Below the pieces are notes generated by a model. It did not search any database, was not told the origin of the DNA, and saw only the letters and a list, made by a program, of their open reading frames with translations. A stretch of 44,459 nt of DNA, the filler included, from Jimgerdemannia flammicorona (taxonomy: Eukaryota): NCBI GenBank assembly GCA_003990765.1. It is 2 parts of 2 records of this genome, joined end to end, with 100 filler letters (N's around TTAATTAATTAA, not from the genome) between each part and the next. Parts side by side here need not be neighbours in the genome. Positions count along the whole stretch, not along the records: positions 1 to 22,181 come from RBNJ01001324.1; positions 22,282 to 44,459 come from RBNJ01001325.1. One strand, 5' to 3'. The position numbers and the translations under genes are program-made. Shown in pieces: positions 8,819-32,482 of the stretch. The stretch's first letter is position 1. Each line of letters opens with the position of its first letter.

Positions 8819-8879
8819 ATTGAATAATGTATGAATTTGAGACCCCAACCTAGAATTTCATACTCATCTCATCCCCAGT

Positions 8880-10771
8880 CAGATCTAAGTACCACTCTGC
8901 TTCCAAGTTACCCTCTGCTATAGCCTGAGCATCCAATACCTCCAAGATCTCTTGACATTCCACCCCATCCACCACTTCCATCTCTGCCCTATAGTCCATA
9001 CAAACTACCCTCCACTTCTCCAATTCCTTCCTTAATCCCTACAAGAATGCTGCCCAGTTATTTATAATTTCCCTGAGTTCCTCCTCTCTCTGATCATCAA
9101 CCTGATATTTAACGGATTCTAAGAGTACCATCAGAATCTCATTTCTAACCTTCCTCAAGACCTCCTCCCCACACAAGATTTCCTCCCAGTACCTTTCTTC
9201 CATAACCTGGAAGTCCTCTCCCCCCAGCTCCTCAGCTGCCATCTCTTCCAGAGTCTTCTACAGCCACTTCTCCTCATCCACTGCCTCTGCCATACCCTGG
9301 ACAACTCACTCTCTCCCCACCTCTGGGTCTACCAAAGCACTCCTTCTCACTAACTCATCTCACTTCTTATCTGGTATATCTAGTAATTCCTCCTCACCCT
9401 CTGCCCTACCCAGGACACTATACTGAGGGTATACTCCACTGTCCATTTCCACATCTACCACAATACTACTCTGCCTCTCCTTCCTTGGTCCATCCTGAGC
9501 CCCTCCTTGGTCATCCTGCTTTTCCCTGCCCAGGCACTCTCATGCAATCCTGCTTCCCCAGCCCCTGTGCTACTACCAGCCCCACCACTACCCAACTTCT
9601 CCAGCAGCTCCTTCTGGATTCTCCTCTCTTGCATCTTCTCCCGGTCGCTCAGTCCATTCTGGTCCTCTTCCCATCAACTATCTCCAATACTGTCTTAGCT
9701 TCATACTCCTTTCATGCCAATCACCTCCTCTCAACTACCCCTGCCAGATCCTCTAGAGCCTCAAGCAAATCTTTCTCCTCCTCCTGCATCCCCTTCATTC
9801 ACATGACCTTGTACTCTACTGGTCTCCACCTCAGAGTCACCAGCCAATCCCTCATCTTCCCCATATTCTCTTTTCCAGCCAGTCTCACCTAGACATTGAC
9901 ATCACCAGTTTGGAGCTCTATATCCTCCCAGACCTTGAACTCAATGTCCACAATCTCCCCATACTTCTTGACTGCCTCCACAATCAACTCCCTGGTCTTC
10001 TCCCTCAACACTGTAGGAAGATCCAACACTATCAACTGTACCACCCAAGGGTTCCAGTATATACACCAAGCCATAGAGACCACTACCCCTCTCACTGTAA
10101 CCTCCTTCTCCATGGCAGCCAACAATGCTTCCTCCTCTTCAAACCCCATCTCAATCTCTTCTTTCTCCTTCAAAAACTTCACTGAGGCTGCCCCCTTCAC
10201 CTCCTGTGCCACCAGCCCCAGATCATCCTTACAGTCACTATCAAGTCCCTGAAATACAATGTGATAGTAAATTCTGACCTTGATTTCTTAAGTAATGGTA
10301 CTGACACCATGCCCATCACCCCATCTGCCAGGTCCCTGGGTCTCATGCCCACCTCCTGTCCTGAACCATCAACTGCTATCATATCTGGATTTTTTTCCAG
10401 ATCCCCAGTCACAGCCCCATCAACAGTCACATCTCCAGCCCCTACTCCCCCCCCTCTCCTTCCACCAGACACCCCCTGGACACTCCTCCCTGTCCCCCAG
10501 CAGCCATTGACATCTTCCCCAGGCCCAGCCAATTATCCAGACCAGAGGTCATTCTCCCCATCTTGATCTTATCAGCAAAGGTCAATCTCTCCCCTCCTCA
10601 TTGTCTCAGACCACCCCTCCCTCCACCACCAGTACCTTGTCCAGCCATAGTGGCCCCTGATATCTCCAAACCATCTCTCCTCCTCTCCAATTACTGCTAG
10701 CCAAAGGCACCACTGCCTCCCTGGCCAGCATACTCACTAGTATAATCATTGCTATCCATATTGATAGTCAT
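8880..10771 (-). pseudogene. LINE copy 1 ORF1 (decayed)
   Basis: Fragments (e.g. 9889-10212 ASVKFLKEKEEIEMGFEE...YGEIVDIEFKVWE) align by eye with ORF1 of the LINE at 36853-38886 (ASVKFLKGLEGVEVGFEE...YGEVVNIRFRVWE). Confidence 0.8.
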
Positions 10772-10855
10772 CTATCATCAAAAATATTGTAAAAAGTGTT
10801 TCCTGAGACTTGTGTCACCTGAATTTTATCAGTGAAAGGCATCAAGTACCAAATA

Positions 10856-11035
10856 TTAATCAATGACTCAACACAACCAGGTTTCAATCAAGATGAGCTT
10901 AATGAAATCAAGACTTTGGTGAGTTTTATTGTCTACTTTTGTTACTCACAAAACTTTATTTCCTTTAACTGATATCTGGGCTTTATATTATTATCAGCAT
11001 GCATCTCAGAAGTAGTCTTTTTTCAACATATCTAT
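10856..11035 (+). pseudogene. Continuation of the interrupted host gene: exon to 10918, intron 10919-10997, exon cut by the LTR at 11036
   Basis: Lies directly after the right-hand TSD. The open frame LINDSTQPGFNQDELNEIKTL is followed by a canonical GTGAGT...TATCAG intron. Confidence 0.45.
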
Positions 11036-12184
11036 TGTAATGTGCCTGGCTCAATAGAGACAAATTATAAGGTTGAGAGTTGATGTAGTTTGGCTTGAGC
11101 CCTCAGTTACTTTGTCAAAAAGCAACAAAATGTTCTAAGATTCCTGAGGTTCTTGGTATTTAGTAGTATAATGGTCAAAGCTAGATATCTGCAAGTGATT
11201 TGTATGTCAATTTCCTATTTGGGACAGTTCTCTGGATATAGCAGTGATTTGTATGTATAAACAGGTTTCCTTTTTGAGTCAACTGGGAATTGGTAGAATT
11301 TCATATATAGTACAATGATCTCCAAAAGTATGCAATTTCTGCATGATGATCTCTATATAGTGTGATGATCTCTGTGTGACGATCCTGTGTAGCACGGGTT
11401 CCTTATATAGAGCAGTTGGGAATAAATAACTTGGATATCATGGGTTCTTCTGAATCAGGCTCTTCTGGGAATAATAACTTGGGCAGCGCAGGTTCTTCTG
11501 GGAATGCAGATGATGCAGATTCTTCCTGAATCAGTGGACTTCTTGAAAATGGTGGCTTCAACTAGGAATATGAATAACTTAAAAACAGTAGTGAAGTTCT
11601 TCCTTGAACTTGGCAGCAAACTTCAGGCTTATCTGGCAAGTGAACTAAAAATGTAACAAACTCTTTTTTGTATCAAAAAGTGGACCAGAGTGGAAAAGGA
11701 AACCAATGCTCACAATCTCCTAGTAGTGGCTTTAGAGCAGACATTTCTCCTAAGTATTGCAATCCTTCCTGGATCAAGTGGCTTTTGGCAGGCATATCTC
11801 TCAAAGTGTAATAGGCAGACTTGTCTTTTGCTTTGAATTCAGACTTTTCAGACTGAGGTTTATTCACTCTTATCTCTGGGGTAATTTATACAAGTTGGTT
11901 GCTATTGGGTTGCTATGTGGCTAACTATAGATCAGCCACTTATAGCAGGTATATAGAGTCTGTATGATATACAGGTCCTGTACAGTATACAGAGTCTGTA
12001 TGGTGTACAGAGTCTGTATGATATATAGAGTCTATACAGGTAAATAGACCCTATCTGATATGTCTGGCTATTTATATAGTTTCTGCAGCAATGGTTGCTG
12101 GTTACTATGCTGTATGTTCACATTATCATTGTTCATGTCATCTGGCTAAGATATGATTCAGGTGGTACATTTGAGTTTATTACA
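11036..12184 (-). repeat. 3' LTR of Gypsy A (1149 bp)
   Basis: TGTAATGTG...TTATTACA, homologous to 20156-21499. Internal minisatellite-like repeats (GTACAGAGTCTGTATG ~11950-12040). Confidence 0.88.
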
Positions 12185-12739
12185 TCAGCTCCTACTGAAG
12201 GATAGTCTGTTCCAGACTGTTCTTCAGTCATCATCCCAATAAGCATAGGCTGCTTCTGCATCTATACTTGTTCTATCATCTTTATTGTCTGTACTAGGGT
12301 TGCTCTATTCTAAAGATTCTTCTTCTTCTTCAGAGAATAGGACTTCAACAGCATTGATGAGACTCAAATAGATAGTAGAGTTCATCTCTTGAATGTTATT
12401 CAGGGAGAACTGTGCCTGTGTCAGAGTTGTGATATTTCATTTGTAAATGGTGTATAGTCTGTCTGCAGCAGTAGTGTCTCTTCTGGTCAGACTGGTGGTA
12501 TTTCTAATGTAGGTCTGTTCTGGGGCTGAGAGGTTCTGCAATTGTTTGCCAATTGCATAGTAGGCCTACAGTTGGTGGATTTGTAGTAGGCATCTGGTCA
12601 AGGTGAAGTTTTCTTGGTGGACTTGGATCTTCTGAAGGGGGTTTCCATTAACTTGGCCAAATTGAGGTAGAGGAACTGGTAGGGCCTGGAAGGAGCTGAG
12701 GACCAATGTCTGGAGGCACTGATCAATCCTTTGGCTCAT
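12185..12739 (-). pseudogene. Extra ORF3 of Gypsy A (up to 185 codons, unknown function)
   Basis: The ATG at 12739 overlaps the end of integrase. A single frame runs to the LTR with only TAG/TGA interruptions: MSQRIDQCLQTLVL...QL*AYYAIGKQLQ...AADRLYTIYK*...FSLNNIQEMN...EEEEE. Confidence 0.65.
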
Positions 12740-13790
12740 GGTGTAAGAGAAAGTATAGTTTGAGATGATTGATATGTACTGGTGTTCTCATAGTTTGTCC
12801 ATCCATGCTTCTTAAATAGATGCTAGTTCTTCTGATATTGTATACAAGATAAGGTCCTTCTCATTTAGGTTTCAGTTTAGTAGTAAAATTTGTTTCAATC
12901 ATGCTTCTCCAAACTAGTACTTGATCTCCAATCTTGATCTCCTGATCCTTTTGTTTTTGGTTATAGTACTTCTTTTGTCTTTCTTGGGCTTTGATAATCT
13001 GTCCTTGGGCTTGATTACATAACTGTTCTGCTCTCTTGAGAAGGTCTCCAAGATTCTCATGGTCAGCAGTTCTGGTTTTCTTGGCAAACATTATTTCAAA
13101 TGGCTTTTGTTTGGTGGAGGTAGCAGGAGTGTTTCGAATTTCCCATAGGATCTCAGGTAAGCAGAGGTTCCAATTAATAGGATTGACTCAGGCAAGTTCT
13201 TTTTTGATGGTCTGGTCCATTTTCTCTGTCATGCCATTGGTCTGAGAGTAGTATGATGTGGTCCTTTTGAGGTGGATCTTGTGAATTTGGGCATAACTGG
13301 TGATTATATTATTGATGAATTCCATGCCTCAGTTAGAGATAAGTTCTTCTGGAGGTCCATATCTGAGTGTGAGTCTATGGAGGAGACCTACAATAGTTAA
13401 GGCATCTGTGATTTCTATTGGAAAAGCCTCAGGCCACTTGGTCAGATGTTTCACAAATATAAGGATATATTTGTTTCTTCTTGGTATAACTGGTAGAGGT
13501 CCAATTACATCTATTCTCCATCTCTGAAAGATGTTTTCTGATGGTATGATTGGTTGCAATGGTGCTTGATAGTTCTTCTTTCCTTGGTACTTCTGACAGG
13601 TGTCATATTTCTTGAGTATGTCTTAGACTTGTATCCTAAGGTTGGGCCAATATTGGTGTGTTGTTCACAACTTTTCTTCTATATTTGCCTGTCCTTGATA
13701 GACTTTCTGATATTCTTTTTGAATGAGATCTTCTTGTACTTTAATGGTCTGAGGAGCTTCCTTTAGAGTGTAGTTCCTTGAGATACCCTT
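12723..13790 (-). pseudogene. Gypsy A integrase (no chromodomain)
   Basis: WRIDVIGPLP...LTKWPEAFPI...YGPPEELIS, QTNGMTEKM, IKIGDQVLV, EGPY and VHINHLKLY motifs. Confidence 0.9.
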
Positions 13791-13829
13791 CTTCTGATTC
13801 ATTGGGGCTAGTAGAAAAGTACATCAACA

Positions 13830-15100
13830 TTGTTGTGAGCTTTCTCTGCTTTGTAGATAATGGTGATTTTGTAATCCTAAAGGATAAGGATCCAGCAGGC
13901 TAGGATTCTGGTGGAGTTCTTGTGGTTGAATAGCCATTTGAGGGCTGCATAATCTGTGATCAGAGTGAACCTTTTTCCAATGAGGTAATGTTTGAATAGA
14001 GTGACCACCCATATGACTGCAAGGCATTCCAGTTTGGTGCTACCATAGTTCATCTGCTGCTGATTGGTAGCTCTGCTTGCATAAGCTATCATATGGTACT
14101 ATTGATTGAGTCCTTCTTAGGCCAGAACTACCTCAAGGCCATCTTTAGAAGTATCTGTATACAAGATGAATGGCTTCTGTAAATTGGGGCGTACAAGGAT
14201 TGGTGCTGTAGTCATGCAGTTCTTGAGTTCTCTGAAGGCTTTTTCTTATGTTTCTGTCCATTTGAATGGTACTTCTTTCTTGAGAAGGATTCAGATTGGG
14301 GCAGCAATTTGGGCAAAGTCTTTAATAAACCTTCTGTAGTAGGATACCAGTATCAGGAATGATAGTATTTCCTTTGGGGTTTTGGGTACTGGCCAATTGT
14401 TGATCTTCTTGGTCTTTTTTGGGTCTACATGGGTTCTTTCTTTCGAAACTATGAATTCAAGGAATTCAAGTTTCTATTTCCTGAAGTAGTATTTCTTTGC
14501 ATTTAGTCTCAAGTGGTTCTTGTGGGTGAGTTTGAAGAATTCCTCTAGATATACAGGTGTTCTTCAAAATTTGCTAAATAGATGTTGGAATCATCCATAT
14601 ATACAATCAGGCAGTAGTAGATCAAGGGGGTATAGACTGAATTCATCATCCTCTGGAAGGTTGGGGGTGCATTGCAAAGTTTAAAGGGCATTCAGAGGTA
14701 TTCAAACAGTTTTCCTAAAGCAAGAAAGGCTGTCTTTTGAATGTCCTTGGGGTCCATAGAGATCTCATGGAATTCTGTGAAGAGATCTATACTACTGAAG
14801 TATCTGGCATCTTGTAACTGATCCAAGAGGTCATCAATTCTGGGCAGAGGATAGGTATCCTTTTTGGTGACTGAATTGAGTTTCCTGTAATCTACACAGA
14901 GTCTCCATCCTCCTTCCTTTGGTATAATAAGTATAGAGCTGGCCTAGGGGCTAGTAAAGAGTCAGATGACCCTATTGTCTAAGAGTTCTTAAATGTGCTC
15001 CTTTTCGAATATTTTCAAGTAATGGGGTATTCTATAGAGTTTCTGTCAGATGGGTGTTGCATTTCCTATATTTATGCTGTGGTGATATGATGGATTGTAT
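13830..15100 (-). pseudogene. Gypsy A reverse transcriptase + RNase H
   Basis: GGWRLCVDYRKLN, YPLPRIDDLLDQL and LIVYMDDSNI (~14580-14610). RNase H: IAYASR...NYGSTKLECLAVIW...FTLITDY. Confidence 0.92.
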
Positions 15101-15619
15101 GGTAGGTTGCCATAATCAGTGGTGAAGATATCTTGATATTTATTGAGAAGTTCTACTAGTTGTTGCTGTTGTTAAGGTATCAATTCTTCTCCAATATTGG
15201 TGGAAGGCTTCACTGTCTCCTGGGTCACAGAGGGGCCTTTCCTTTCTTCTGAGACCTTTTGCTGTTTCCCAATAGATTTAGTTCATAAACTTCTCTATAG
15301 GTTTAGTTGAGAAAAGGTACCAGGTGCCCTATGATGGTTCCTTTCAGCAGGATGATGGTCTCCCAACTTTGGTTGATTGCTTGGGAGTATACTGAATTCA
15401 TCTTGTTAGGGAATATGTGTCCCTCTATATCCAGGTGTGGGATATCTTCCTTGGGTTCAAAGAAAAGGTTCCTGGGGTCAGGTGGTGCAAAGATTTCATA
15501 GATAGTTTGTTCTCTGGACTCCAGGATAAGATTCTTGTACAGTCTGACTGGTTGCTAGTACAGTTGCTGGGGAATATTCCTCTTGAGGTGGTTGACTTGA
15601 AGAAGATGTACTTCCTTTC

Positions 15620-16034
15620 TGTCTGAACTTCCAAATCTCTTGGCTTGTCTTATTTCTTCAGTTAGTTTAGAGATTTCTTGTAACTGGAGAGTCTTGATCT
15701 TCATGAAGACTGCTTGGGCAATCTTCTGTCCTCTAATAATTTGGTACCATTCTGCACTGCTGTTGTGTAAAATAACCTTGATTTCGCCTGTATATCCTGG
15801 GTCAATAGTTCCTCCTTCCACAGTTATTCCTTGTTTAGCAAGTCCAGACCTTGAGGTCAGTTGGATGTAAGATCCTTGGAGTGGCTGCATGACTAATCTG
15901 GTTCTGATCATGAAGGTTTTTCCAGGTTTGATAGATTCATCCTCCAGACTGTGAAGATCATACCCTATATCTTCTGGGTGGGCTTTGGTCAGGAGTTTGG
16001 CCTTGGGGTGCAGCAGGGCATACTGGACAATATC
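15620..16034 (-). pseudogene. dut: Trimeric dUTPase domain of Gypsy A (between protease and RT)
   Basis: All five motifs are recognisable: DIGYDL, SRSGLA, GGTIDPGYTGEIKV, GQKIAQ, RQAKRFGSS. Confidence 0.92.
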
Positions 16035-17349
16035 CTTGCTGAGTTCAGGCTTTCCTAAGGCTGAAGCTCTACTAGCAGAGAGCCTCCAAGCTCTGAGATT
16101 GAGGTGAGGCCATCTGGCTCCAGTGGAAGGGTCTCAGAGGTAGTTAATTCCTCTTCTTCCTGTAGGGTCTAGGGTTTCCATGAAGTTGGCAGCATCTCCT
16201 GCCCATCCTCAGTAGGTTGTATATCTGATGAGAGCTAGGATGTCTTCTCTCAGATCATAGATCTTGAGAATTCTTCTTTCTGGCTTCTTGGTCTGGCTTT
16301 TTCAGATCTGGCTTCAGTTATCTCCTCTCTTCAAGGTGTGGACTATAATATCATGGCTGAGGTGAATCTTCTGATGTCTACAATCTTGGCAATCTGGGTG
16401 TCTTCCATGGTTACAATATCCTATTGCTTGGAAATGATGTTCTCAGCTATTTATCTCTTGTTGCCTTGGGAATCAGTACCTATCTTAGTTATAAGTTGGA
16501 GGAAGAGTGGATAAGAGGTATGTATACTTCTGTTTGGGTGAAGAGATCTTGTCCCCTGAATCAGCTTTACAACTTGGTAGTAACTTCTTAGAAAGTAGTT
16601 AACTGTACAACTATATTTGGAGGTTCTGATCTCTGGGGTCTCTGTCTCTCCTATTGGTCTAGTAGATGATGGCACTGGTAGTAATAGTCTTGGGGAGAGT
16701 GGAAGACTATTTGGTATAGACATCTTCCTAGCTAAAATACCCTCTCTTAGTGAGTTTCTTTCTTGGAGATACTAGGGATTGTACTGGTTCCTTCTTCTAT
16801 ATTTTAAGGGTCATTGTCTTCAGGTAGTGTCCAGTGAGGGTCATTCTAGTGAATGAGTTTAGGGATCTCTTCTTCTTCAGGTACTTCTCATTCAGGAACT
16901 TCTTGGTCAGGAACTTCTTCTTCCTTAGATAATTCTTGACCCCAAATTGCTTATACTTCTGCAGCTTCAGCTGCAGGTGTTTCTGAAACATATCTGCATT
17001 TCTTCTTCTTCTTTCTGCACTCAGGGCAAGCTGTGCCAGACGAATTCTTTGTCCCAATGATCTTAGAGAAGTACTCAGGGCACTTGTATCTCTTGAGACA
17101 GGTGGGGCATCCTTTGATCTCTCCTGCAATGGCTCTGATGGTAATGGAGACAGTATTCTTAGCCTATACATTGTCTTCTGGTCTGTCTTTCACTAGGTTG
17201 ATCCTGGGATTGAGTCTGGGGTCATTTCCATCTTCAGATTCTCCTTCTTCCTCTATAGTGTACTCTTTACTGCTGGTATATTTTTCCTGGATAGTGACCT
17301 TCTTCTTCTTCTTTGATTGCTTATAGCTAGTCACCTTAACTCTGTACTT

Positions 17350-17690
17350 CTTGTCTTGGTAGTTAAACTTAAGTACTTGTTGACTGATATTAACAACTTC
17401 ATTCATTTCCTTTATCCAGTTGATACTAAGGATTATATCATAGATGACAGCTTTGGTGATAATAGCTTTTGGGATAGAGAACTAAATATATCTCAGGGAG
17501 ATGGTGATGTTTTATACTTCTCCAAGGGGTTGAGTTTAGGCTCTATCTGCTACCATTATGCTGAGGTTAGATGGTCTATCAATGGGCCATCCAGAAATTA
17601 TTTAGCAATAATACAGATAGCTGTTCCTATATCTATAAGAATTTTTATTTTTTGCCCTCTAATGTCTCTATGTAAGTAGGTGCTGACATG
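17350..17690 (-). pseudogene. Gypsy A aspartic protease
   Basis: IFIDIGTAICII (decayed DTG), followed by a DIILSINW (LG.DW-like) motif. Confidence 0.75.
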
Positions 17691-18249
17691 TCTCTCTGTA
17701 GCCTGGATGGGTATGGGGGCTGGCTCTTACTGTAGGATGAGAACTTAGCCAGTGCTAGACCTGGTGGTCTTCAGAAATTTGTTTCAAACTCTGGCTATTG
17801 TCAGTTACAGGAACTGTAGAAGAGAGACCTCCATATTGGCTTCTTGAATCTTCTACCAGACTTCATTGTAGATGCCTCTAGATATGGTCTTTGGGGCATA
17901 CTTCTTCTTAGACTTTGGGGCAGCAGATTCTCATTCTTCTTGTTTCATTTCTTCATTCTCTAGTAGCAGCTCATTTGTCTCAGAGACAAAAGAAAAAGAA
18001 GTCTGAAGAGGTATTTCTACTTATTCCTCCTCATGTTCTTCATATTCTTCTTAGATGATTCTTCTACTGATATTCCTGGATGGCCTTCCTATAGGTCTCT
18101 TCCTTTTCTCCACTGGGTAGACTGTTTTTCAGGTAATAACCTTGGTAGAGTACAAGTCCAGGTCACTATAGTCTTCACTATTGCTTGCTTCCTTGAAATC
18201 TTCAATAGGATGGGCTTCAGTCTTCTTGTACTGAGTGTCATTCCTTTGG

Positions 18250-20090
18250 TTTGATAGTTCTGAGTTCCTTTAGTTACTTCTCTTATTGTCATATTCAGTA
18301 GTATAGTGTCCAAATTATCTACAGTAGAAGTATTAAACTTGGGCTCTGTCTTGGACAGAGTATCTTCTTTCTTCTAGCTGGTAGCTCCTGTTATCTCTTA
18401 GTGGATAACTTTGGCTTCTTTATAGAAGATATCCTCTGTTGTCTTGATAACTCTAATTTTTATATATGGTGAGTTTTTCAATCTGTCCAACCAATCAGTC
18501 CAATTTAGAGCTGAGGTCTTGAATTTCACTCCTGTCCTTCTTCCCTTCTTTGGCTGGCCTTCTTTCTTTGGATCTTTCTTGTCCTTTAAGGAGTTCTTGT
18601 AGAGCTTTGACTAGGATGTCTTCTTTATCTTCTTTCTTATCATAATCACTCCAGGTAGTTCCTTGTCTGATATTAAAGAATCCTTAGACTACATCTACTT
18701 GTTCTTCAGACCTTCTGATGCCTAGAGTTCAGACATGCTGGGAAATATTTGGGGGAATCCTATTCATGAAGGTCATTGGACCTATGATATCCTGGTTGGT
18801 GGTATTGAACCCAGCAGTATGCATTCTTTTCTGAATTCTTATAAAGAAGGCTCTGGGTAATTCTCCAAGATTCATCTTCATCCCTATAATGGATTCTTGA
18901 GTCTTGTGGCAGATTTTGTTTTCTGTATATTTTTCAATAAGCCAGTGGACCATGGCCACATATTCCAGCTCATAGAATGCTACTGCTTGTATCTGTCTTG
19001 CTAGTTCTGAATATAGGTTATTTGCTATTTAGTGGAAAATTCCTCTGGCTGGTTCTCTGAGCTGGGTCTTGTAGATGGCAATTTTTCTTTCATCTGAGAG
19101 ATTTCTCAGGGCTGCAATTTCTTCAATTCTATCAAGGAATTCTCTGGAGTCTTCCTCCAGGTATCTTGCCAAGGTTGGCAATAAGGTGGCCATTTCATCA
19201 TCACTTTCTTCTGATTCTGGTTCTGGTTCAGATTCTGATTCAGATTCTGACTCTGATTCACTTTCTGAACTGTCACTGGAGATGGGAGTACTTGGATATC
19301 TTGAGGATAGTGTTCTGGACCTTGGATGAAGTAGAATGAGCCTAAGTATTCTTGTAGAAGCTACTTCCAATTCTGCAAGAGCTGGTGGTAAAGGTTCAAT
19401 AGGTGAGATTGGTGGAACTAGTATGGGGTATCTGGCTGTAAGATCTCAGGCTTATATAATGAGATCTTCTGGTTCTTGTACAAGTTCTTCAAGTTGTCCA
19501 GCAGAGTCACCTGTGTTGTCTGATTGATCTGCTTAGGGATCTCTGACTGTATTGGCTTCTGGTTGGGATCCTTCTGATTAGTGCTCCCAATGAATTGAAT
19601 TGAATTGAATTTGGCCCAAACTCGATTCGATTCGATTGAATCAAGGGTCCAATTCGATTCGAAGTTCGATTCAAATCTTAATTTTCAAAATATAATAACT
19701 CGACGAAAACTCATCCAAATTTATCATATGTTAGCTTGTTAGATTCACCATATTAATGTGATTCTAACAAGCTACAGTACATTAGATTTAGATGAGTTTA
19801 CGCTGAGTTATTGCATTTTGAAAATTAGGGTTCGAATCAGACCCTCAATTTGATTTGACTTTTGATTTGATTTGAATTGATTCAAATTGAAAAATCCCCA
19901 ATTCAATTCAACTTGTTTAACCCTCAATTTGATTCGATTTGAATTGATTCGACTCGTTTGGGAGCACTACTTCTGATGCTAAATAGTTGGCAAGTCTTGA
20001 GATAATTACTTCTCTTCCTGTTCAGATATTAGTGATAACTGATTCTCCTGTGGTGATAGAGATTAGTATTGTATCAAATGTATCCAGTTT
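18250..20090 (-). pseudogene. Gypsy A gag (N-terminal region interrupted by the MITE)
   Basis: SE-rich linker, capsid-like EDSREFLDRIEEIAALRNLSDERKI and GELPRAFFIRI, and a decayed zinc knuckle YFYCR*FGHY near 18290-18335. Confidence 0.8.
19579..19969. mobile_element. hAT-type MITE, 391 bp, inserted in Gypsy A
   Basis: Perfect 12-bp TIRs TAGTGCTCCCAA / TTGGGAGCACTA. Perfect 8-bp TSD CTTCTGAT at 19571-19578 and 19970-19977. Subterminal (ATTCG/ATTTG)n repeats; no ORF. Confidence 0.95.
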
Positions 20091-20136
20091 GACTGTGGGT
20101 TCTTGTGAGCTAAAAAGTTATGTCAATTTGAAATCC

Positions 20137-20153
20137 TCTCAGTTAAGCCCCCA
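20137..20153 (-). other. Primer-binding site of Gypsy A, tRNA-Pro-like
   Basis: TGGGGGCTTAACTGAGA, 2 nt inside the 5' LTR, resembles the canonical tRNA-Pro PBS TGGGGGCTC...CCGGGA allowing for transitions. Confidence 0.65.
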
Positions 20154-20155
20154 AA

Positions 20156-21499
20156 TGTGATGTACCAGACTCAATGGAGGCAAATTACAAGGTTGGGGGT
20201 TGATGTAGTTTGGCTTGAGCCCCTAGTTACTTTGTCAAAAAGCAACAAAATGTTCTAAGATTTCTGAAGTCCTTATTGGTGTTTAGTGGTATAATAGTCA
20301 ATCTGAATACAGTAATAGTTCCTCTGTTCACATGGTAGTTAATTTATGTAGATTTTCTTAGAGATAGTTCCCTGGGTATAGCAGTGATTTGTGTATAAAT
20401 GGGTTTCCCTCTTAAGTTAACTGGGAATTGATAGAATTTCATATATAGTATGATGATCTCTGTATGTAATAGTCTGGCAATTTAGTGGTTTCCTTCTTAA
20501 GTAATGGGTGATCTCTATATAGTGTGATGATCTCCAAAAGTATACGATTTCTAGATAATAGTCATGTTTTCAAAAGTATATAATTTCTGGTAGATAGTTC
20601 AATTTGGATGTGGATTCTCCTAAATCAGTAGGCTTCTTGAATGTTGCAGATTCTCCTAAATCAGCTCACTGGGAATTATGCTCAGCAGCTTACTGGGAAT
20701 AGAGAGTGGTATAGATTCTTCTTACTGGGAATAAACTAATAACTCAGATAACTCAGATGATGCAGATTCTTCCTAAATCAGTGGGGTTCTCGGAATAGTA
20801 CTCAGATTCTTGGTAAGTTACATCAAAGACTGACTTCATTTATATGGAGTTATATTATAAACTGGCTCTACTGTAAAGTTGTATCAAGAGACTGACTTGT
20901 AGCAAGAATAGGTGGGCTCTTTGGAAATGTGAATAACTTGGAAATGGCAGTAAAGTTCTTCCTTAAACTTTGGTGGCAAACTTGGATTCTTCAGACTTAT
21001 CTGGTAAGTAAACTAAGGCTTTATATCAGAAAGTAGACCAGAGTGAGAAAGGGACAAAGCTCACAATCTCTTAGTAGTGGCTGTAGAGCAGGCATTTCTC
21101 TTAAGTATTGTAATCCTTCCTAGATCAAATGACTTTTGGCAGATATATCTCTCAAAGTGTAGTAGGCAGACTTGTCTTTTGTTTTATATTTTGGAACTGA
21201 GGTTTATTCACTCTTGTCTCTGGGGAATTTATATATTATGGTTGCTATATAGCTAACTATAGATTTACCATTTATAGTAAGTTGTACAGGTCCAGTACAA
21301 GTGTACAGGTCTAGTACAGGTGTGCAGATCCTGCACAGATATACCTTATCTGGTAGTCTAACTATTTATATAGTTTTCTACAGCAATGGTTGCTATATCT
21401 AATTACTATACTATGTGTTTATATCATCTGACTAAGTTACTAATTGTTCACATTATCTGGCTGAGTTATAATTCAGGTGATATATCTTAGTTTGTCACA
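20156..21499 (-). repeat. 5' LTR of Gypsy A (1344 bp)
   Basis: TGTGATGTA...TTGTCACA, homologous to 11036-12184 but with large indels. Confidence 0.88.
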
Positions 21500-22181
21500 A
21501 TATAGATGTTTCCAATGTAATTTTATTTCTGGATATTATTAGTTATTAGATTGATCTTGATTAGCAACTTAAATCTCTTACCCTTAACTTTATCAAACTT
21601 ACTAGTTCTCATTCTGGAGAAAACATTGCAGATACTTTATTAGTTATATCTGAGAGCTTGAGATGACAACTAAGATAGCTTGCTATCTAGTTGGTATTTT
21701 GAGAGAAATCTTAAAACAAAATAGATTTTAATAATTATTTATTTTTGTATAAATTTGTTAACTAAAAATTTCAAGTATAGATTTTGGCCATTATGATAGA
21801 TAATACTATATATAAATAATACAGTATTTTTCTGAATTTTAGCAGCCAACCTTCAATAGGAAAATATAGCCTTTAGTATAAAAAACTATCATATATATTA
21901 TTAGGCCCATGTACTGAATCTTGCTATTTAGGATTATCATATATATATAGACAAAACATCTAGAAGTAAAGAGACTCTGAGTATTGTTTTCAAGCTATGC
22001 AAACTGATTATATTGATCTGATCATCTCTACAATAATGAGAAAAATTTACTATATAGTATAAAGCAATCAGTTTAGTCCCAAAAGAGCTGATATTAGATA
22101 TCTGTATATATTAGAACTTAATATTTATATTGATCTAGTATATGCTGGAGTTTGCTATAGTATATACTTTTTTCTTTTTTT
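21500..22181 (+). mobile_element. Internal fragment of a hAT transposase gene, heavily mutated
   Basis: Colinear with the reverse complement of ~33600-34265, including an intron: NVILFLDIISY*IDLD*QLKSLTLNFIKLTSSHSGENIAD. Confidence 0.85.
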
Positions 22182-22281
22182 NNNNNNNNNNNNNNNNNNN
22201 NNNNNNNNNNNNNNNNNNNNNNNNNTTAATTAATTAANNNNNNNNNNNNNNNNNNNNNNNNNNNNNNNNNNNNNNNNNNNN
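22182..22281. other. Assembly gap spacer (44 N + TTAATTAATTAA + 44 N)
   Basis: Exactly 100 bp and symmetric. The 12-mer gives stops in all six frames, as in scaffold linkers. Confidence 0.97.
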
Positions 22282-22648
22282 CCCCCTCCCTAGGCTCGCC
22301 TTGCCCTTCCCCTCAGCAGCACCAGCCCTTCCCCCAGCCGGCCACCCACTCCCCTTGACCTTGTCCGCAAAGCTCGGGAGCCCAGACTTTCCCCCATTGT
22401 CACCAGCCGACCCTTGCCCACCAGCCCTGTCTCCTCCTCCACCACGGCCTCCCACCAGCAGGCACCTCATGCTTCCCCCCAAGCCAGGACCTCTCCCCAC
22501 ATTCTGCCATTCGAACGCTCCAGGGCTACCCTGCCCAGTACGCACCTCCGGATGCTCGTTGGTCACTATGAAACTAGTAGCTTTTCTCCAGAAACTGTGT
22601 CGAAAGTGTTGCCAAAGGGTTGTGTAACCTGAATGTTACCGGAGAAAG
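22282..22648 (-). mobile_element. 5' end of LINE copy 2 (5'UTR + start of ORF1); body lost in the gap
   Basis: Near-colinear with 38690-38958 (GRGPGLGGSMR..LLVGG; CTCCAGAAACTGT.TCGAAAGT.TTGCCAAA.GGTTGT.TAACCTGAATGTT). Retains many CpGs. Confidence 0.88.
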
Positions 22649-22651
22649 ATG

Positions 22652-23245
22652 TTTGCATGCTCCCTCTACCTGCCCCACCCATCCTGGATACTTGCAGCTT
22701 GGGGCTGTCTCTTGCTGCCGGCGGAGGACCACAAACTTTGCATGCACCCTCACTGACCCCACACCCACCAACCCCACCCACTGATCTGGATGCTGATAGC
22801 TTGGGGCTGCCTCTCACTACTGGCAGAGGGCCACAAATTTTGCATGCTCCCTCCACCTTCCCCGCCCATCCCAGATACTTGTGGCTCAGGGCTGTCTCTT
22901 GCTGCCAGCAGAGGACTGTGCATGCTCCCTCTACTGACCCCATGTCCACCAATCCCACCAACCAACCCCACCCACTGACCCAAGCACTGATAGCTTGGGG
23001 CTGCCCCTTGCTGCTGGCAGAGGACCACAAGTTTTGTGTGCTCCCTCCGCCAACCCCCCTGACTGGGACACTTGCAGCTTAGGGCTACCCCTTGCTGCTG
23101 GTAGAGGGCCGCAAATTTTGCATACTCCCTCCACTGACCCGCCCATCGACCCACCCACTGACCCAGGCACTGATAGCTTGGGGCTGCCCCTTATTGCTGG
23201 CAGAGGGCTGCAAACACTGCATGCTCCCTCTGCCACCACCACCAA
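22652..23245. repeat. C-rich tandem array, ~6.5 units of 78-116 bp in alternating A/B types
   Basis: TGCATGCTCCCTC-like unit starts at ~22652, 22737, 22839, 22917, 23033, 23117, 23217, with a shared GGGGCTG...GCTGCTGGCAGAGG core. Confidence 0.9.
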
Positions 23246-23386
23246 CCCTGCTGACCACTGCCCACTTGGGCCACAAACTCCGGGCCGAGTTCTCAGGGTT
23301 TTTGCCTTTTTATTATTTTTTGAAAGGTATTAAATATTCCACAAGGCCAACCAACTTATCTGCAAACCCCCAGAACCTACCGAATT

Positions 23387-24197
23387 TTAGCAGCCTGAGC
23401 CCCACTAAGATTTCAGACACATACATGCCCGGATTGTCTCAGCATTCAGCACACACCTCTTTGGGACAACAAGGTCCACTCTACTTGAGAACACCTACTC
23501 AACAGAAGTACTGGAGGCAGGAATTACCAGGTAGTTCTGAGCTATGCCACACAGGCTGAAGAAGTCCATTTGATGCAGCTGCACACCCCAGTGGGTAGAG
23601 TGGTGGGTAGAGCAGTAGTTAGATTAGTGGGTTAAATTGGCCCAACACCCATCTGACAACCCACCTTCCACCAGTTGAGCACCTCTGCGCCCTCCAGCAG
23701 GATCATGTGGTCACTGGTAAGGTAAATGGTAAGTTCATCTATTGATGGCAGCTCTTCCACTAATGGCTCCCTCTTCCTCTTTCTGCTGAAGTAAATGTGG
23801 GACAGGAGGGATCCCTCAGCATATTCATCCAGACTTTGGTTGGAACCTTGCAGTGGTGCATAGTTTTTCTGATATACTTCGATTATGGCCTACTTGGTTC
23901 TCTCAATGAAGTGCTGCTCCCAGCCCTGATCTTTATAGTATTGTAGCTTTAAGCGTAGGTCCAGCACTATTTGAAGGAGAGGAGAGAGTGAGTTTTTGCA
24001 GAGGTTTCTCTGTTTTGGAAGGGGTAATGGCCACATGCTGACATCGACATTGACATATCTGTACTGATTGAGTATATAGAAATATCTGTTTAGGAGTAGT
24101 ACTTTCTGAGCTTGCTAAGAGCAACCTCCACAGTGTCTCTCTGATCCAGACTCAACTGTAAATCACCGCAACCCTCCAGCATGTTCTCGAGCTTGTC
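23387..24197 (-). pseudogene. 3' part of a hAT transposase (split from 33238-35391 by Gypsy B)
   Basis: SKLRKYY, LDLRLK (LDPR.K) and the dimerisation domain LVIPASSTSVE*VFS...KRCVLNAETIRACMCLKS. Confidence 0.9.
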
Positions 24198-24920
24198 TGT
24201 AATAACTCTCACTTCTACCCCTCTCTTATCCTTTAGATAATTAGGGAAGTGGACTATTACTTAGGGACTTAGTACACAATGTATACCAAGAAGCCTTCAG
24301 TTTGAGGAAGCACTCACTTATAAGTAAGTGTAGTGGCAGTACCTTATCTTTCAAAGGTCTTTCTCTTGTGTCCTATTTCGAGGGTCTTGTTCTTTGCTGT
24401 ACACAGACTGAATTCACCTTGGAATTCAGGTTCAATGGGTTTACTTAAGTCTTTGGGGATTTATATACTGGTCTCAGTTCTGGCAGAAGTTAGCTAGGCT
24501 TCTGGAGTTTAGTCAGAAACACTAGAGTCACTTAGATGTCATTACTAAGACTCAGGGGAATGTGTGTGTGTGGGGGGGACTTGATTCTTGTATCAAGGAC
24601 TAAACTAAAACTGCTTTATTTCGGATAGAAACTGGGGGGTATTTATACAAGTTGGTCCACGATTTCTGACTAAGTATGAGTGACTAATTTGGTAACTATA
24701 ATGAGGTTTAAAGAATATCTTTGTGATCAGAACCTCAATTACTAGGCAATGACCAGCAGCTGTAACAACAGTTGCTGCAGCACTGATTGTTGGGGATAAG
24801 CTGGATATCATTTTTTGCATTATTTCACATCGTTTGTCATTTGTATATTGCACTTTATTCATATGATGATGTCATCACCGTTGGGTCACATGATCACTCA
24901 TCATGCCTTGTTCTATTACA
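24198..24920 (-). repeat. 3' LTR of Gypsy B (723 bp)
   Basis: Colinear with 32483-33237; differences are almost all transitions plus one ~30-bp indel. Confidence 0.95.
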
Positions 24921-25761
24921 TCCTTCCCTCCTTAGAAATCAACATCCTCGTTGATTGAGAAATTGAGAACCAGAGGAGAGAAAGGTGGGGAATCCTGCTC
25001 AGGGTTGTTGGCATCTTCTTCAGTAGCAGGGGGGTAGTGGTTGCTGATGGCTCACTGTCCAGGATAGAGAAGTCAATGAGGTCTGCAAATGGTTCTTGTA
25101 TTGGGATAGGTGCTGGTATAGGGGTTCTCCATCTGATGCGGTTGGGGCCATCCAAGTAGGGTTCTTGATTCTCATGCCTGGGAATATCCATTTGGATGGG
25201 CAGTCCTTCAAAGAGGTCAGAGAGGCCTTGGAGCCATTGGTCAGAGTTGTCATTCAGGAGGGGGCTCTAGTAGGGTTTGTAGTCAATAGACTTGAGGGTG
25301 ATCTAGGAGTTGGCTTCTTGGGCTACCTTGATTTCTAGTTTGTCAACCTCAAAGAAGGAGAGGTTCTGGAAGTTCTTCAGTTGGATATAGTTGAGGTTGG
25401 GGATTGCAAAGAGTATATGACACATGATTTGATGGATCTTCTTGAAAAGTCTTTGCTTGCTCCCATCCAAGTGGGTCCAATCAGAAACTTGGTCCATGAG
25501 CAGATCCTTTGCCTATTGGAGAAGTTGATGGCCAATCTCATATTCATGCCAGATCTCTAGGCAGCTAGTGGTAAGGTAGGCTCTTTTGATGACTTTGCAG
25601 CAGTTGAGGACATAATGTCCTAGGTCCTGGCTGGAGAGGTCAAGGGCCTCTGAGTGGCAGTTCCTTCCTTAGATAGCAATCTGGATGTGTCCAAAGAGAT
25701 GGTCAACCTGGTTTGGAAGGGGCTGGCTATGGTGGGTAGTTTGGCAGCGAGTGGCAGGCAT
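24916..25761 (-). pseudogene. Extra ORF3 of Gypsy B (282 codons, unknown function)
   Basis: ATG at 25761. Track ORFs 25303-25497 and 24916-25191 are in the same frame, and there are only four internal stops (TAA/TAG). TATAAATA at 25833-25826 upstream. Confidence 0.7.
24921..24933 (-). other. Polypurine tract of Gypsy B
   Basis: AAGGAGGGAAGGA abutting the 3' LTR on the - strand. Confidence 0.85.
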
Positions 25762-26439
25762 TCTTGTCTTGTCCTTTTCTTTGTGAAGAGAGGAGATGAG
25801 AGTTGCAGAGTATTCTTACCTTGGGTATTTATACTTATTCACCCATCTGATATAACCTTCCTTTGGTCACACTTTCTGACAAAATACATGACCTATTGCT
25901 GTAAGTGAGGTATGTGCTGGTCACATGAGAAAATCCTGATTTCGAAGATATCATCACTTGTAGTTATGGTTATACAGGGTTAACAGGTCTTGGTTCTCTT
26001 TTTTTTTGTCTGGTTGGTGCATTTGCAAGGACTGGCCATCCTTGTCTAGAGTGAGGGCTCTCATTGTCACAGCTGGAGGTTTGAACCTCTCAGAAATAGA
26101 CTTTTCTTATAATCTGAGGCAATTCCTAGTAATAATATCTATCATGTAGATGGACTTAGACTGGTTTCAATGTGCTCGGCTTTCCTAAGTTCCATATGAA
26201 GCATCTATTATCATCCAGCAGAGATGACATAGATGGTGTGAAATGGAGTTGTTCAAATGTGTTTTGCTGTACTGTACTAGATTGTTCATTTGCTTAGGTA
26301 TCTTCTTGTTGATTATCCATAGTGTTCTCTTTTTTTGCAATGTTTGGTATTATATGTTTCCAGGTAAGTATGTGGTATCCTTCTGCTTACTGTGAGCTCC
26401 AAATCCTAGAGCTGCAGTTCCTTTCTTTGCTGAGGAGTG

Positions 26440-27800
26440 AGTGTTTCTATATAGTTCTGGAGAGCTTTGCATGCATTCTTCAGGGTTTCTTATTTTTCTC
26501 AGGTGGCATCATGGGTGGGGTAACCCTTCCACTTGATCAGGAAAAACCACTTAACTGTTTTAGGATATTTGCAGACCTTGTGGTCAAGTACTTCCTCAAT
26601 TTCAAATTCCTTGTGATCATTGATCCTAATTGGGGGTAGTAGTGGAATTGTATGCTTGGGAAATGGATTCTCATGGTAGTCTACCAATTGGCTGATATAG
26701 AATACTGGGTGTACTTGGATATTATGGGGAAGTTGCAACTTGTAGTTGACTTCGCTGATCTTTTCTATGATCTTGTATGGTCCAATTCTTCTAGCATGGA
26801 GTTTCTTGGCTGGTTGTTATGCCAGAGTGTCTGGTCTGTTCTAAGTATGACCATGTCACCAATATTGTAGGAGGCTTCTCTTTGCTTCAAGTTCATGTAC
26901 TTGGTCTGATAGTCTTGTGCTTCTATGAGAGTATCTCTTGTCATTCGGGTAAGGTCAGAAATAGTCTCGGCCAGATCTTGGGCTACTGGGACTGCTGATT
27001 TCACAGTAGTACTTGAGGTCCTTGGGTGTTGACCATGGTTCAGGAAAAATGGAGTCTTCTTTGTGAAGGTTTACTGACTGTTATTGTAGGCAAACTTGGT
27101 ATGGACTAGATATTTGTCCCAATCATTTTGCTTGTAACAGCAGAAGATGCTAAGCATCTGTTTGATAGTCCTGTTGGTATGCTTGGTTTGACCATCAGTC
27201 TGAGGGTGGTAGGCAGTAGAGAACTTCAGCTTGGTTCCATAGAGAGAGAAAAATGCCTTCTAGAAGTTGCTTGTGAACTTGGTATCTCAGTCAGATATAA
27301 TAGTACTAAGCATGCCATGTAGCCTGAATACTTAATTGAGGAAAATCTCGGTAATCTCTGGTACTGTAGTAGTGGTCTTGGTGGGTGCAAAATGGGCTTG
27401 TTTACTTAGGCAGTCCATGAATACCACAATAGCATCCCATCCTGTCTTGGTCTTGGGAAGTTGGACAATGAAGTCCATTGCAATCTGGTCCCAGTTGTGA
27501 CTTGGGATAGGCAAGGGTTGCAGGAGTCTGGCTGGTAGCTTGTTATCACTTTTAAACCTTTGGTACATCTTGCATGAGATCACAAAGTCTTTGATGTCCT
27601 TGGTCATTTTTGGTCAGTAGAACTCTCTTGAGAGGAGATTGTAGGTCTTTTCGAAACCAAAATATCCTACTGCAGGAGTATCATGGAGTTCCTGCATGAT
27701 CTTGAGCTGCAGAGTATCATTGTTGGATACAACCACTCTGTCATAGTCCCTATAGATAAGTCCATCATGATAGGTGAATCTCTTGGCCATTTGCCTCATG
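26440..27800 (-). pseudogene. Gypsy B integrase with GPY/F region and C-terminal chromodomain
   Basis: HDTPAVGYFG, IAMDFIVQLPKT, AYHPQTDGQT and VHPVFYISQL; chromodomain EFEIEEVLDHK...FLIKWKGYPTHDAT at ~26500-26610. Confidence 0.93.
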
Positions 27801-27939
27801 GGTTCTGGAACCTTGGCCTCTGGATCTTGGCAGAATTGAAGAAAGTTTGTCAGGGGGCTGTCCTGCTGGTAGCCATCCTTGATCATTTGGGTAAGGTCTT
27901 TAATTACTTTGACCATGAAGACAAGTTTATCTTCCATGT

Positions 27940-29250
27940 ATCTGGAGAAACCATCAGCCACACAGTTGGTTTTGCCTGGGATATACTTGATTTCTATATC
28001 AAAGTTGGTAATGATTTCCATCCAGCAGGCTTGTCTATGGGTCAGTATGGGCTGTATGTGAATATACTACAATGTATAGTGATCAGTATAGGCTACAAAT
28101 GGCTGTCCTAGGAGGAAATGGCGCCATTCCTGAAGTGCAGTAATAATAGCCAGGAGTTCCTTCTCATAGGTGGTATACTGGGTCTCAGCTGGCTTGAGCT
28201 TTTGTAAAAGGTAGGCCACTAGGCAGTCTTTTTGGCTGAGTATTGCCCCAATGGCAATGTCAGAGGCATCTGTGGTCAGAGTGAATGGCCTGGTAGGGTC
28301 AGGTGCAATTAGCACTGAGGTCTCAGTAAGGAGTCTCTTGAGATGGTCCATAGCCAGGGTGTATTCAGAGGTCTATTCAGTTTTGATATTCACTCCTTTG
28401 TGGACCAGGCTGGTTAATAGAGCTGCAATAGCAGAGTATCTTTAGATAAACCTTTGGTAATAACTGGTAATACCCAGAAAGTGCTGAAGTAGCTTGAGGG
28501 TAGTAGGAATAGGGATATCCTTAAGGGCTGATACCTTTCAGGGGTCCACATTGATACCTTCAGCAGAGATGATGTGTCCTAAGTACTCGATCTGGTCTTA
28601 ATAGAACTTATACTTGCTCATCTTGGCATAGAGCTGGTGTTCTTGCAGGAGGGTCAGTACTTGTCTGAGGTGAGTGTAATGTAGCTCTACTGTCTCACTG
28701 TAGATTAGTATATCGTCAATATATACAAGAATACAGATGTTGAGGAGTGGTCCAAAGATGTCATTCATCAGATACTGGAATATTGCTGGTACATATATTG
28801 GTCAATCCAAAAGGCATGACTCAGAACTGGTAGTGTCCAAACTGTGTTTGGAAAGCTGTTTTCTCGATGTCCTTCTCATCAATGAGAATCTGGTGGTAGC
28901 CATTTCACAAATCCAGTAGAGAAAAGGTCTTGGTCTTGAAGATTTGGTGTAGCAACTCATCAATCCTAGGTAAGGCATACTGGTTCTTGATAGTAATCTT
29001 GTTGAGGGCTCTGTAGTCAATACACATTCACAGAGAGCTATCCTTCTTCTTGACAAATAGAATGGGGGCTCCAAATGGAGAGCAGCTAGGTTCAATGTAT
29101 CCTTGGGCCAGTAGTTTTGTCAACTCGTCCTTGAGGGTCTTGAGTTCAGGCTGAGCCAGTTGGTAGATACTCTTATATAGGGGTTCAGATCCTGGAATAA
29201 GATCAATTCCATGTTGGATTTGGCACTTGGGTGGAAGTCCTTGGGGGTCT
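27940..29250 (-). pseudogene. Gypsy B reverse transcriptase + RNase H
   Basis: [27 protein letters not shown] (~28700-28735), LTTDASDIAIGAIL, YEKELLAII, FVAYTDH. Confidence 0.94.
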
Positions 29251-29499
29251 TGGAATATATCTTAGAATTCTTCAAATAGTTCTTGAGCTTCTGTTGGAAT
29301 TGGACTACTTATAGCTTCAGTGACTTCTTGTACTGTACAGATGAAGTAGGTGTTTCCCTTTTTTCAAGAGAGTCTCTTCATTTGAATGACAGAGATGATT
29401 TCGATTCCTTGGTGGTTGGTACCTTCCTGTGGTGTCAGGGTAATCTTTCTGTCTTTGTGAGTCAGGTTAACCTCATTGGTTCTCCAGTTGATGTCTGGG

Positions 29500-29790
29500 T
29501 TGTACTGGGTCAACCAGGCTTTTCCTAGGATAATGTCTTATCCTGGGAGGTCTACAATGCTGAAGTCTAACTTCTCTTGATATTTGTCAATCTTGAGCAA
29601 AAGATCTTTGCAGATCTTGGTCAATGGTGCAGTTTTACCATCACTAAAGATAACACTTCTTTTCTCAGTGATTGATCTGCTTTGGGCTCCAATCCTCTTG
29701 GCAGTCTTGGTACTGATGTAGTTTCCAGTAGCACCACTATCAAGCAAGATATTGACATTTTGTCTGTGGACTTGGCCTGTGAACTTGATG
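29500..29790 (-). pseudogene. Gypsy B aspartic protease
   Basis: LLDSGATGNYIS...DIILGKAWL; in frame with the upstream dUTPase ORF. Confidence 0.9.
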
Positions 29791-32479: not shown

Positions 32480-32482
32480 AGT

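Follow-up and report, generated by a model that had tools for sequence, protein, structure and literature searches.

We analysed a stretch of DNA of 44,459 nucleotides (nt) from Jimgerdemannia flammicorona (assembly GCA_003990765.1), hereafter the window, in which parts of records RBNJ01001324.1 (positions 1–22,181) and RBNJ01001325.1 (positions 22,282–44,459) are joined by 100 filler letters. It contains two long terminal repeat (LTR) retrotransposons of the Ty3/Gypsy type, elements A and B, both on the minus strand. The original prediction, made from the sequence alone, was that each carries a hidden third open reading frame (ORF) between integrase and the 3′ LTR. LTR mapping and Pfam domain scans in which stops were read as X bear out this placement, and the peptide strings given for the two frames read as predicted on the minus strand, at 12185–12739 in element A and 24916–25761 in element B. 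The homologues and codon comparisons described below show that both frames are decayed copies of a real, conserved third gene located after pol, which we refer to as ORF3. The gene copies and the elements that carry them are arranged as follows; L001, L002 and L003 are related metagenome loci, and P-numbers denote proteins found in the searches described below.

Element A
11036–12184 (-), 3′ LTR (blastn; termini compared)
12224–12739 (-), ORF3-A, decayed copy, 171 codons plus TGA (translation, family model, intact homologues, codon comparison, dN/dS)
12566–12568 TAG, 12437–12439 TGA and 12305–12307 TAG (-), internal stops of ORF3-A
12732–13733 (-), integrase (tblastn of the L003 integrase, 75% identity over 334 amino acids (aa); Pfam scan)
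15624–16004 (-), dUTPase domain (Pfam PF00692, E 2.5e-23)
20156–21499, 5′ LTR (blastn)

Element B
24198–24921 (-), 3′ LTR (blastn, repeat comparison)
24921–24931 (-), polypurine tract GGAGGGAAGGA, between the ORF3-B stop and the LTR start TGTAATAG, abutting both
24932–25761 (-), ORF3-B, decayed copy (translation, family model, tblastn of P0017, P0018, P0019, P0020 and P0003)
25669–25671, 25513–25515, 25303–25305 and 25267–25269 (-), internal stops of ORF3-B
26448–26606 (-), chromodomain at the end of pol (Pfam PF00385, E 1.6e-6)
30120–30503 (-), dUTPase domain (Pfam PF00692, E 3.2e-28)
32483–33238, 5′ LTR (blastn)

A conserved third gene after pol

In a six-frame translation of the window, the family model of ORF3-A matches 12739–12227 (E 3.6e-88). 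The true stop is the TGA at 12224–12226, which follows ...WDDD, and the same end is found in all full-length homologues; the frame had originally been carried on to 12185, but its last 13 codons lie outside the gene. Codon 58, initially taken for a mutated tryptophan, encodes glutamine in relatives, being TAG in the window and CAG or CAA in 3/3 related loci. At codon 145 the window has TAG and relatives have TGG. At codon 101 the window has a TGA where intact proteins carry R, W or Q; the L001 codon is CAG, and L002 has the same TGA. The proposal that the stops of element A are explicable by C-to-T or G-to-A transitions therefore stands for codons 58 and 145 (2/3), with R, W or Q opposite the third. 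Each copy has its own stops, most of them a single transition from a sense codon; the codon 101 TGA, however, is common to the window and L002.

The corresponding match of the ORF3-B family model spans 25761–25051 (E 3.1e-119). A frameshift between about 25050 and 24995 places the true C terminus, which reads ...PLVLNFSINEDVDF before the stop and matches P0017 and P0032, in another frame, so that the gene ends with a TAA at 24932–24934, directly before the polypurine tract, and not at the end first assigned to it. The stops at codons 153 and 165 align with W in homologues, as expected of transitions, but those at codons 31 and 83 correspond to R, E or K, and the ORF3-B stops are therefore not all single transitions. 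Sub-threshold matches of both family models and of P0017 near 40000–41050 (-) were rejected as noise in AT-rich DNA without other B-like sequence.

A word-indexed search through 5.8 billion proteins, with ORF3-B as query, yielded a single relative among 204 candidates, P0003, which matches at E 7.9e-76 with 59% identity and without stops over 214 aa. An exhaustive HMMER search of 1.84 billion representatives gave 9 proteins at E ≤ 0.001, five of which are relatives: P0003 and four others spanning 138–342 aa (P0017, 342 aa; P0018, 247 aa; P0019; P0020). The long repetitive proteins P0021–P0024 were discarded as compositional matches, with 4–8 matched stretches and unrelated Pfam domains. For ORF3-A, 5 relatives were found by single sequence and 13 by profile, with E values down to 7.5e-72; full-length members are 169–183 aa long, among them intact homologues of 171–172 aa, and all end in ...AY.[YH]W[DN]D[DN]. 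Intact ORF3 homologues are 41–88% identical. All 18 relatives are metagenomic and either unnamed or labelled 'hypothetical protein', with 16 members of 9 clusters listed. No plant, animal or named fungal protein was returned by the ORF3 protein searches, and a scan of viral contigs with P0003 found no relative.

In three metagenome loci (3 confirmed relatives among 302 pattern matches), ORF3-A directly follows a Gypsy integrase. A test of selection that had been suggested along with the prediction was carried out on four A-lineage DNA sequences (window, L001, L002 and L003), in six pairs and three frames. Nonsynonymous divergence (dN) in the ORF3-A frame ranged from 0.21 to 0.36; synonymous divergence (dS) was saturated in 4/6 pairs, and the two remaining pairs had omega values (dN/dS) of 0.08 and 0.20. 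In both shifted frames, omega was 0.70–4.40 in 12/12 pairs, and these frames look neutral. Start and stop positions are conserved among relatives. The codon comparison shows frame-specific purifying selection on the family A ORF3 in active relatives.

Within the window, the two named frames have the fewest stops, with 5 compared with 9–13 in the other five frames of 12185–12739, and 5 compared with 8–22 in those of 24916–25761. Taken alone, this is weak evidence for a gene, and so modest an excess of openness (5 stops versus 8–13 in the next best frames) would also suit frames left open by chance in the decayed, non-coding sequence that separates pol from the LTR. That explanation, which we regard as extremely improbable, is refuted by the intact homologues at 41–88% identity and by the frame-specific selection, and the conserved start and stop positions likewise stand against it.

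The LTR pair of element A is 70–75% identical by blastn and that of element B 87%. Pfam domains of the dUTPase, reverse transcriptase (RT), RNase H and integrase types were matched in both elements, and protease, SH3_Tf2-1 and chromodomain in element B only; the difference in chromodomain had been predicted. The element A integrase terminates about 10 residues past an SH3-like motif, with no Pfam match to a chromodomain. A third B-type LTR at 43794–44420 (-), 76–78% identical to the other two, has no B-like internal sequence below it and represents a solo LTR or else the 3′ LTR belonging to a copy beyond the window end. When element B (24198–33238) was compared with contigs from four public DNA runs, coverage extended to B-type elements together with their spacer and ORF3, and the window copy differed from the contigs almost exclusively by transitions. 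Relative to the contigs of run X1, it differs at 800 transition and 61 transversion sites, the commonest difference being A or T in the window and G or C in the contigs. This pattern is the signature of C-to-T hypermutation of the window copy.

Elsewhere in the window, a host gene ORF with a CFEM domain lies at 1319–1777 (-) (Pfam PF05730, E 4e-5, above the curated cut-off); CFEM domains are specific to fungi, and the gene is a mark of a fungal genome. GC skew is very strong (-0.4 to -0.6) at about 4000–11000 and about 35500–39000 (-), and at least the first of these stretches encodes a non-LTR-type reverse transcriptase (RVT_1 at 6641–7090, E 9.5e-9). A 229-nt repeat links 22409–22637 and 38726–38954. 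Five imperfect copies of a 102-nt unit, 68–81% identical to the reference copy, occupy 22660–23240, in a G+C-richer stretch between elements A and B. At 39000–43800, G+C falls to 20–34%, and the DNA there looks like heavily transition-mutated repeat sequence.

Candidate routes of ORF3 expression

The two lineages differ in how ORF3 is joined to pol. The features concerned are these:

12736–12739 (-), ATGA, ORF3-A start over the ancestral pol stop (junctions of window, L001, L002 and L003)
L001 1640–1790, L002 1066–1216 and L003 3702–3852, upstream TATA region of ORF3-A
25823–25834 (-), GTATAAATACCC, 12-mer copy of the B-type LTR TATA box, candidate internal promoter, 62 nt upstream of the ORF3-B ATG
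25873–25886 (-), TATTTTGTCAGAAA, 13/14 match to the block upstream of the B LTR TATA box (E 0.39 alone)

The stop of pol overlaps the position of the ORF3 start at all four A loci. The junction reads ATGA in the window, L001 and L002, and ATAA, with the start codon lost, in L003. In the three metagenome loci, ORF3 is read in the -1 frame with respect to pol; in the window copy, the pol frame runs on to 12723 owing to the loss of one base about 5 codons upstream of the ATGA. The ORF3-A ATG has an A at -3. Since its AUG overlaps the pol stop, ORF3 of lineage A would be translated by reinitiation after termination at that stop on genomic RNA, or from a short 3′ transcript. Production as a Pol–ORF3 fusion by frameshifting is unlikely, because no -1 slippery heptamer (X XXY YYZ) was found in the 400 nt before the pol stop in 3/3 loci; ahead of that stop, the ORF3 frame stays open for just 7, 20 and 51 codons. 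On the same grounds, we rejected ORF3 as an integrase C-terminal domain added by -1 frameshifting. Two observations weigh against reinitiation. RNAalifold detected no conserved RNA structure upstream of the ATGA in the four sequences (covariation -0.06, 1/22 pairs compensatory), and a UGGGA motif present at -125/-122 in 3/4 loci is accounted for by conserved integrase WEGP codons.

A TATA consensus, TATATAAG, is located about 78 nt upstream of the ORF3-A start in 3/3 metagenome loci, within the integrase coding sequence, and the window copy reads TATTTAAG at this site. The consensus might provide another route to an ORF3 transcript, or it could reflect codon choice for Y-I-R.

A stop-start overlap is not the arrangement of lineage B, in which a stop-rich spacer of about 640 nt separates the chromodomain from ORF3-B. 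The 12-mer GTATAAATACCC has four matches in the window, consisting of the three B-type LTRs and the site before ORF3-B; 0.22 were expected, and 0/100 shuffles reached four. The LTR block TATTT[A/T]GTCAGAAA is matched at 13/14 positions before ORF3-B, and the order of the two parts is the same as in the LTR. Together they form a promoter-like module 62–125 nt before the ORF3-B ATG, and no ATG occurs between the TATA box and the ORF3-B start. As a lead, then, ORF3-B appears to be preceded by a candidate LTR-like internal promoter. The limited extent of the resemblance, a 12-mer and a 13/14 block in one decayed copy, counts against this assignment. A partial copy of the LTR core promoter at this position would give a subgenomic ORF3 mRNA ending in the 3′ LTR.

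The ORF3 proteins and the descent of the two families

Modelling and residue composition show ORF3 to encode a small, soluble product whose helical core, about 100 residues in length, is followed by a long, strongly acidic and disordered tail. The AlphaFold2 (AF2) model of family A is all-helical with a disordered tail (predicted local distance difference test score, pLDDT, 70.5; predicted template modelling score, pTM, 0.58), in agreement with the helical character anticipated from the sequence, and comprises one helix of 36 residues and five shorter ones (residues 34–134). The core of the A proteins is basic, with an isoelectric point (pI) of 9.1–10.3, and the tail of 37–38 residues carries a net charge of -15 to -18; B tails are 57–127 residues long with a net charge of -14 to -21. 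Aromatic and aliphatic residues are found within the acidic runs of the tails, as in VEILFPEEEEE...AYAYWDDD of family A and the hydrophobic-acidic motifs DLI.F[SE]D and P.VLNF of family B. Kyte–Doolittle maxima over 19 residues are 0.59–1.36 in 10/10 family members examined; at these values a transmembrane segment is not predicted, consistent with the earlier view that signal peptide and transmembrane helix are lacking.

Database comparisons gave no named family, as had also been anticipated. Pfam contained no match for the window copies with the threshold set at E 10, nor for 5 intact members at a threshold of E 0.01. Among PDB sequence profiles, the best for A was a coiled-coil protein (E 0.03), and B was without a match. 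The proposed AlphaFold/Foldseek comparison, run on the A model, gave a helical fold with no match in PDB or BFVD at E ≤ 0.001. The ESM atlas returned unnamed clusters only (0.93 for A, 0.88 for B), and the fact that these are the same few clusters for both families is a lead only. As regards an origin of ORF3 by duplication of gag, neither family model had a match in gag regions of the six-frame window at E ≤ 10 with a positive domain score, a result compatible with remote similarity. These searches show that, at the level of detectable similarity, the ORF3 protein is without a relative outside these elements.

By the identity of their proteins, A and B are distant but related dUTPase-bearing Ty3/Gypsy lineages. 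The dUTPase, correctly predicted for both and matched by PF00692, is at the same place in each and is 48–50% identical between them; values for RT, RNase H and integrase are 35–43%, 27% and 27–31%, respectively. The LTRs of both elements start with TGTAATA. The distinctness of the two lineages was overstated, given the dUTPase identity and the common LTR terminus and TATA region. Elsewhere the A and B LTRs cannot be aligned; at 11840–11950 and 24585–24700 (-), both have CAACTTGTATAAAT(T)ACCCC in the vicinity of the TATA box.

ORF3-A and ORF3-B probably come from one ancestral gene, as several profile comparisons suggest. When profiles of 13 A and 6 B rows were compared with hhalign, the top alignment was the one originally drawn by eye, pairing A 46–104 with B 66–122 (score 22.5, E 0.023). 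Column shuffles reached this score in 1/200 and 0/250 trials, that is, once in 450. A second, non-overlapping alignment joins the A N terminus, DQxLQTLxLSSFQxLPIPL, with B 173–194, DQWLQGLxDxFEGxPI, and scores 21.7; the highest shuffle score was 13.5 (0/250 reached 21.7). The A model assigned 10.4 bits to P0003 and 7.0 to P0018, compared with a maximum of 6.5 among 600 shuffled decoys. Both matches fall on the same collinear region, which the reverse search matches too. In the six-frame window (about 89,000 residues), the best non-self match of the B model is ORF3-A, in the correct frame, at E 0.17. Helix boundaries in the A and B models run parallel with an offset of about +18, a weak piece of evidence because the B model is poor (pLDDT 39.7). 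The possession of an acidic tail by both families points the same way.

Other results weigh against common descent and would be expected if ORF3-A and ORF3-B were both real but unrelated, as independent captures or de novo genes that converged, at the element's only free site, on a helical core with an acidic tail. The A/B alignment had been described as almost without gaps, yet pairwise BLASTP does not raise it above chance (15.8 bits, E 0.80), and what survives of that claim is its place as the top hit of the family profiles, where hhalign gives it a probability of only 2.1% even though it beats 449 of 450 shuffles. Those shuffles destroy helical periodicity, so that the null is lenient and the real score flattered. 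With small profiles, the best A/B pair lay elsewhere in the proteins (E 0.17). The order of the two shared blocks differs between A and B, and the best shared motif is placed differently in each protein. Scored with the A model, four of the six B sequences do not rise above decoys, and this model has no match at ORF3-B in the six-frame window. Lengths (171 versus 247–342 aa), core charge and gene junction also differ.

We nonetheless consider unrelated origins unlikely. Two separate local similarities exceed nearly all shuffles, HMMER matches are reciprocal on one collinear region, the top non-self match of the B model falls on ORF3-A, and the two elements have the dUTPase in common at the same place. 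Faint similarity is also what common descent would lead one to expect. Between a sublineage of A and the window copy, integrase is 75% identical and ORF3 51%, and a gene that diverges about twice as fast as integrase should be nearly invisible at the A/B distance, at which integrase itself retains 27–31% identity. If the two families descend from one gene, an ancestral ORF3 would have diverged at about twice the rate of integrase, and the conserved motif DQxLQxL...FxxLPI would have moved.

Function of ORF3 and comparison with known systems

The combination of a helical core, an acidic hydrophobic tail and a shared promoter module fits an element-encoded transcriptional activator or chromatin adaptor best. 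By analogy, we put this forward as a tentative assignment, possible but short of probable, in which ORF3 would act on the LTR and the internal promoter after the logic of foamy-virus Tas. Two results weigh against it. The core of the B proteins has a pI of 5.4–6.1 and is near neutral to acidic, not basic. In a wide structure search (VIA), the best Z was 4.9, below the tool's noise level for helical proteins, and a DNA-binding fold was not recognised; small DNA-binding helical domains gave structural Z values of only 3.4–4.3, also below that noise level. Taken as a whole, an account that combines the reality of the ORF3 gene, common descent, the expression routes and an activator role is the best explanation we can offer, and we judge it a little less likely than not.

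A more far-reaching proposal, and in our judgement an improbable one, is that some fungal Ty3/Gypsy elements are 'complex' retroelements, with a new-fold transactivator, ORF3, that would be expressed from an internal copy of the LTR promoter in lineage B or through stop-start reinitiation behind pol in lineage A, and would feed back on element transcription. Such a circuit would be convergent with spumavirus Tas and its internal promoter, outside animals and Retroviridae.

Two other functions seem to us quite doubtful. ORF3 might be produced together with Pol as a cofactor for integrating the element or assembling its particles, for instance a detachable targeting subunit that tethers integrase to chromatin, whose acidic tail would take over in trans the part that a chromodomain plays in cis. 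The lineage A gene begins on the stop codon of pol (ATGA), which would couple its synthesis to that of Pol, and the integrase of this lineage ends after the SH3-like motif with no chromodomain match; an acidic tail could bind histones or other basic partners. Lineage B, however, has a chromodomain as well as ORF3, a gap of 640 nt and a promoter-like module of its own, a layout that argues against obligatory coupling of ORF3 to Pol. Alternatively, ORF3 might be a counter-defence protein that blocks host silencing (RNA interference, heterochromatin or a C-to-T mutator), for example by sequestering a host factor through its tail motifs. Proteins that interact with the host typically evolve rapidly and have disordered, motif-rich tails. 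ORF3 diverges at about twice the rate of integrase (51% versus 75% identity), its disordered tail contains repeated short hydrophobic-acidic motifs that vary between lineages, and the window copies differ from relatives almost only by transitions. Strong purifying selection on the core is not the sign of an arms race, however, and no similarity to known suppressors was found in Pfam or the ESM atlas.

What the analysis adds is a concrete protein family under selection, associated with a clade of dUTPase-bearing Gypsy elements that soil metagenomes contain in abundance, together with natural intact ORF3 sequences and two candidate expression mechanisms, the AUGA overlap and the LTR-like internal promoter. 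Gene predictors now report ORF3 as an orphan. Should it regulate transcription or chromatin, it would reveal the means by which a fungal transposon governs its own activity or escapes silencing; as a mere structural helper, it would still be a new and easily annotated marker gene for the clade.

Retroviral and errantiviral Env have only the position between pol and the 3′ LTR in common with ORF3. We rejected ORF3 as an Env protein: it is small and acidic, matches no Pfam env family, and lacks a signal peptide and a membrane-spanning segment (maximum hydropathy 1.36).

To our knowledge, fungal LTR retrotransposons are generally described as gag-pol only. The original prediction that fungal Gypsy elements normally encode just these two genes was nevertheless overstated, in that a 2010 survey (Novikova et al., PMC2864245) draws an 'add. 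ORF with unknown function' for some of them. Extra ORFs between pol and the 3′ LTR are also described, as lineage-specific genes, for plant Tat/Ogre elements and as bdelloid rotifer ORF3s (PMC5408684, PMC2774666). Like the ORF3 described here, the Tat/Ogre, rotifer and 2010 fungal ORFs are post-pol and of unknown or non-env function. Unlike the other extra ORFs of Ty3/Gypsy elements, it yielded only metagenomic proteins in searches, and none from plants or animals. No description of the ORF3 protein family, its selection or its junctions was found in the literature searched, which included a figure legend of the survey. Extra ORFs in Ty3/Gypsy elements are thus already known, and the ORF3 protein family, its selection and its junctions appear to be new.

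Victoriviruses of fungi use AUGA as a stop-start signal. Stop-start reinitiation is reported for caliciviruses, influenza B and the SART1 retrotransposon in PMC10275272, and use of UAAUG by the hypovirus CHV1 in PMC2699510. In these systems, as in ORF3-A, the downstream start shares bases with the upstream stop, out of frame and after a long ORF. ORF3-A differs from them in that no structured RNA element was found upstream of its start, and reinitiation is a candidate mechanism for it. An LTR retrotransposon that uses a stop-start signal for a post-pol gene was not found in the literature searched.

Accessory genes separate 'complex' retroviruses from simple retroelements, and Tas (Bel1) of foamy viruses, which carries an acidic activation domain, is the closest parallel to an activator role for ORF3. 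Spumavirus Tas binds both internal and LTR promoters, according to PMC517496. ORF3 differs from Tas in having no similarity to it in sequence or fold (Pfam; BFVD at E ≤ 0.001), in belonging to a Ty3/Gypsy element without env in a fungal host, with transactivation as a putative activity, and, in lineage A, in abutting pol, with no room for a separate promoter outside the coding sequence. The likenesses are in layout and composition. Like Tas, ORF3 is an accessory gene at the 3′ end of its element, before the 3′ LTR; a copy of the LTR TATA module precedes it in element B, as seen in one decayed copy; and both proteins have an acidic C-terminal region.

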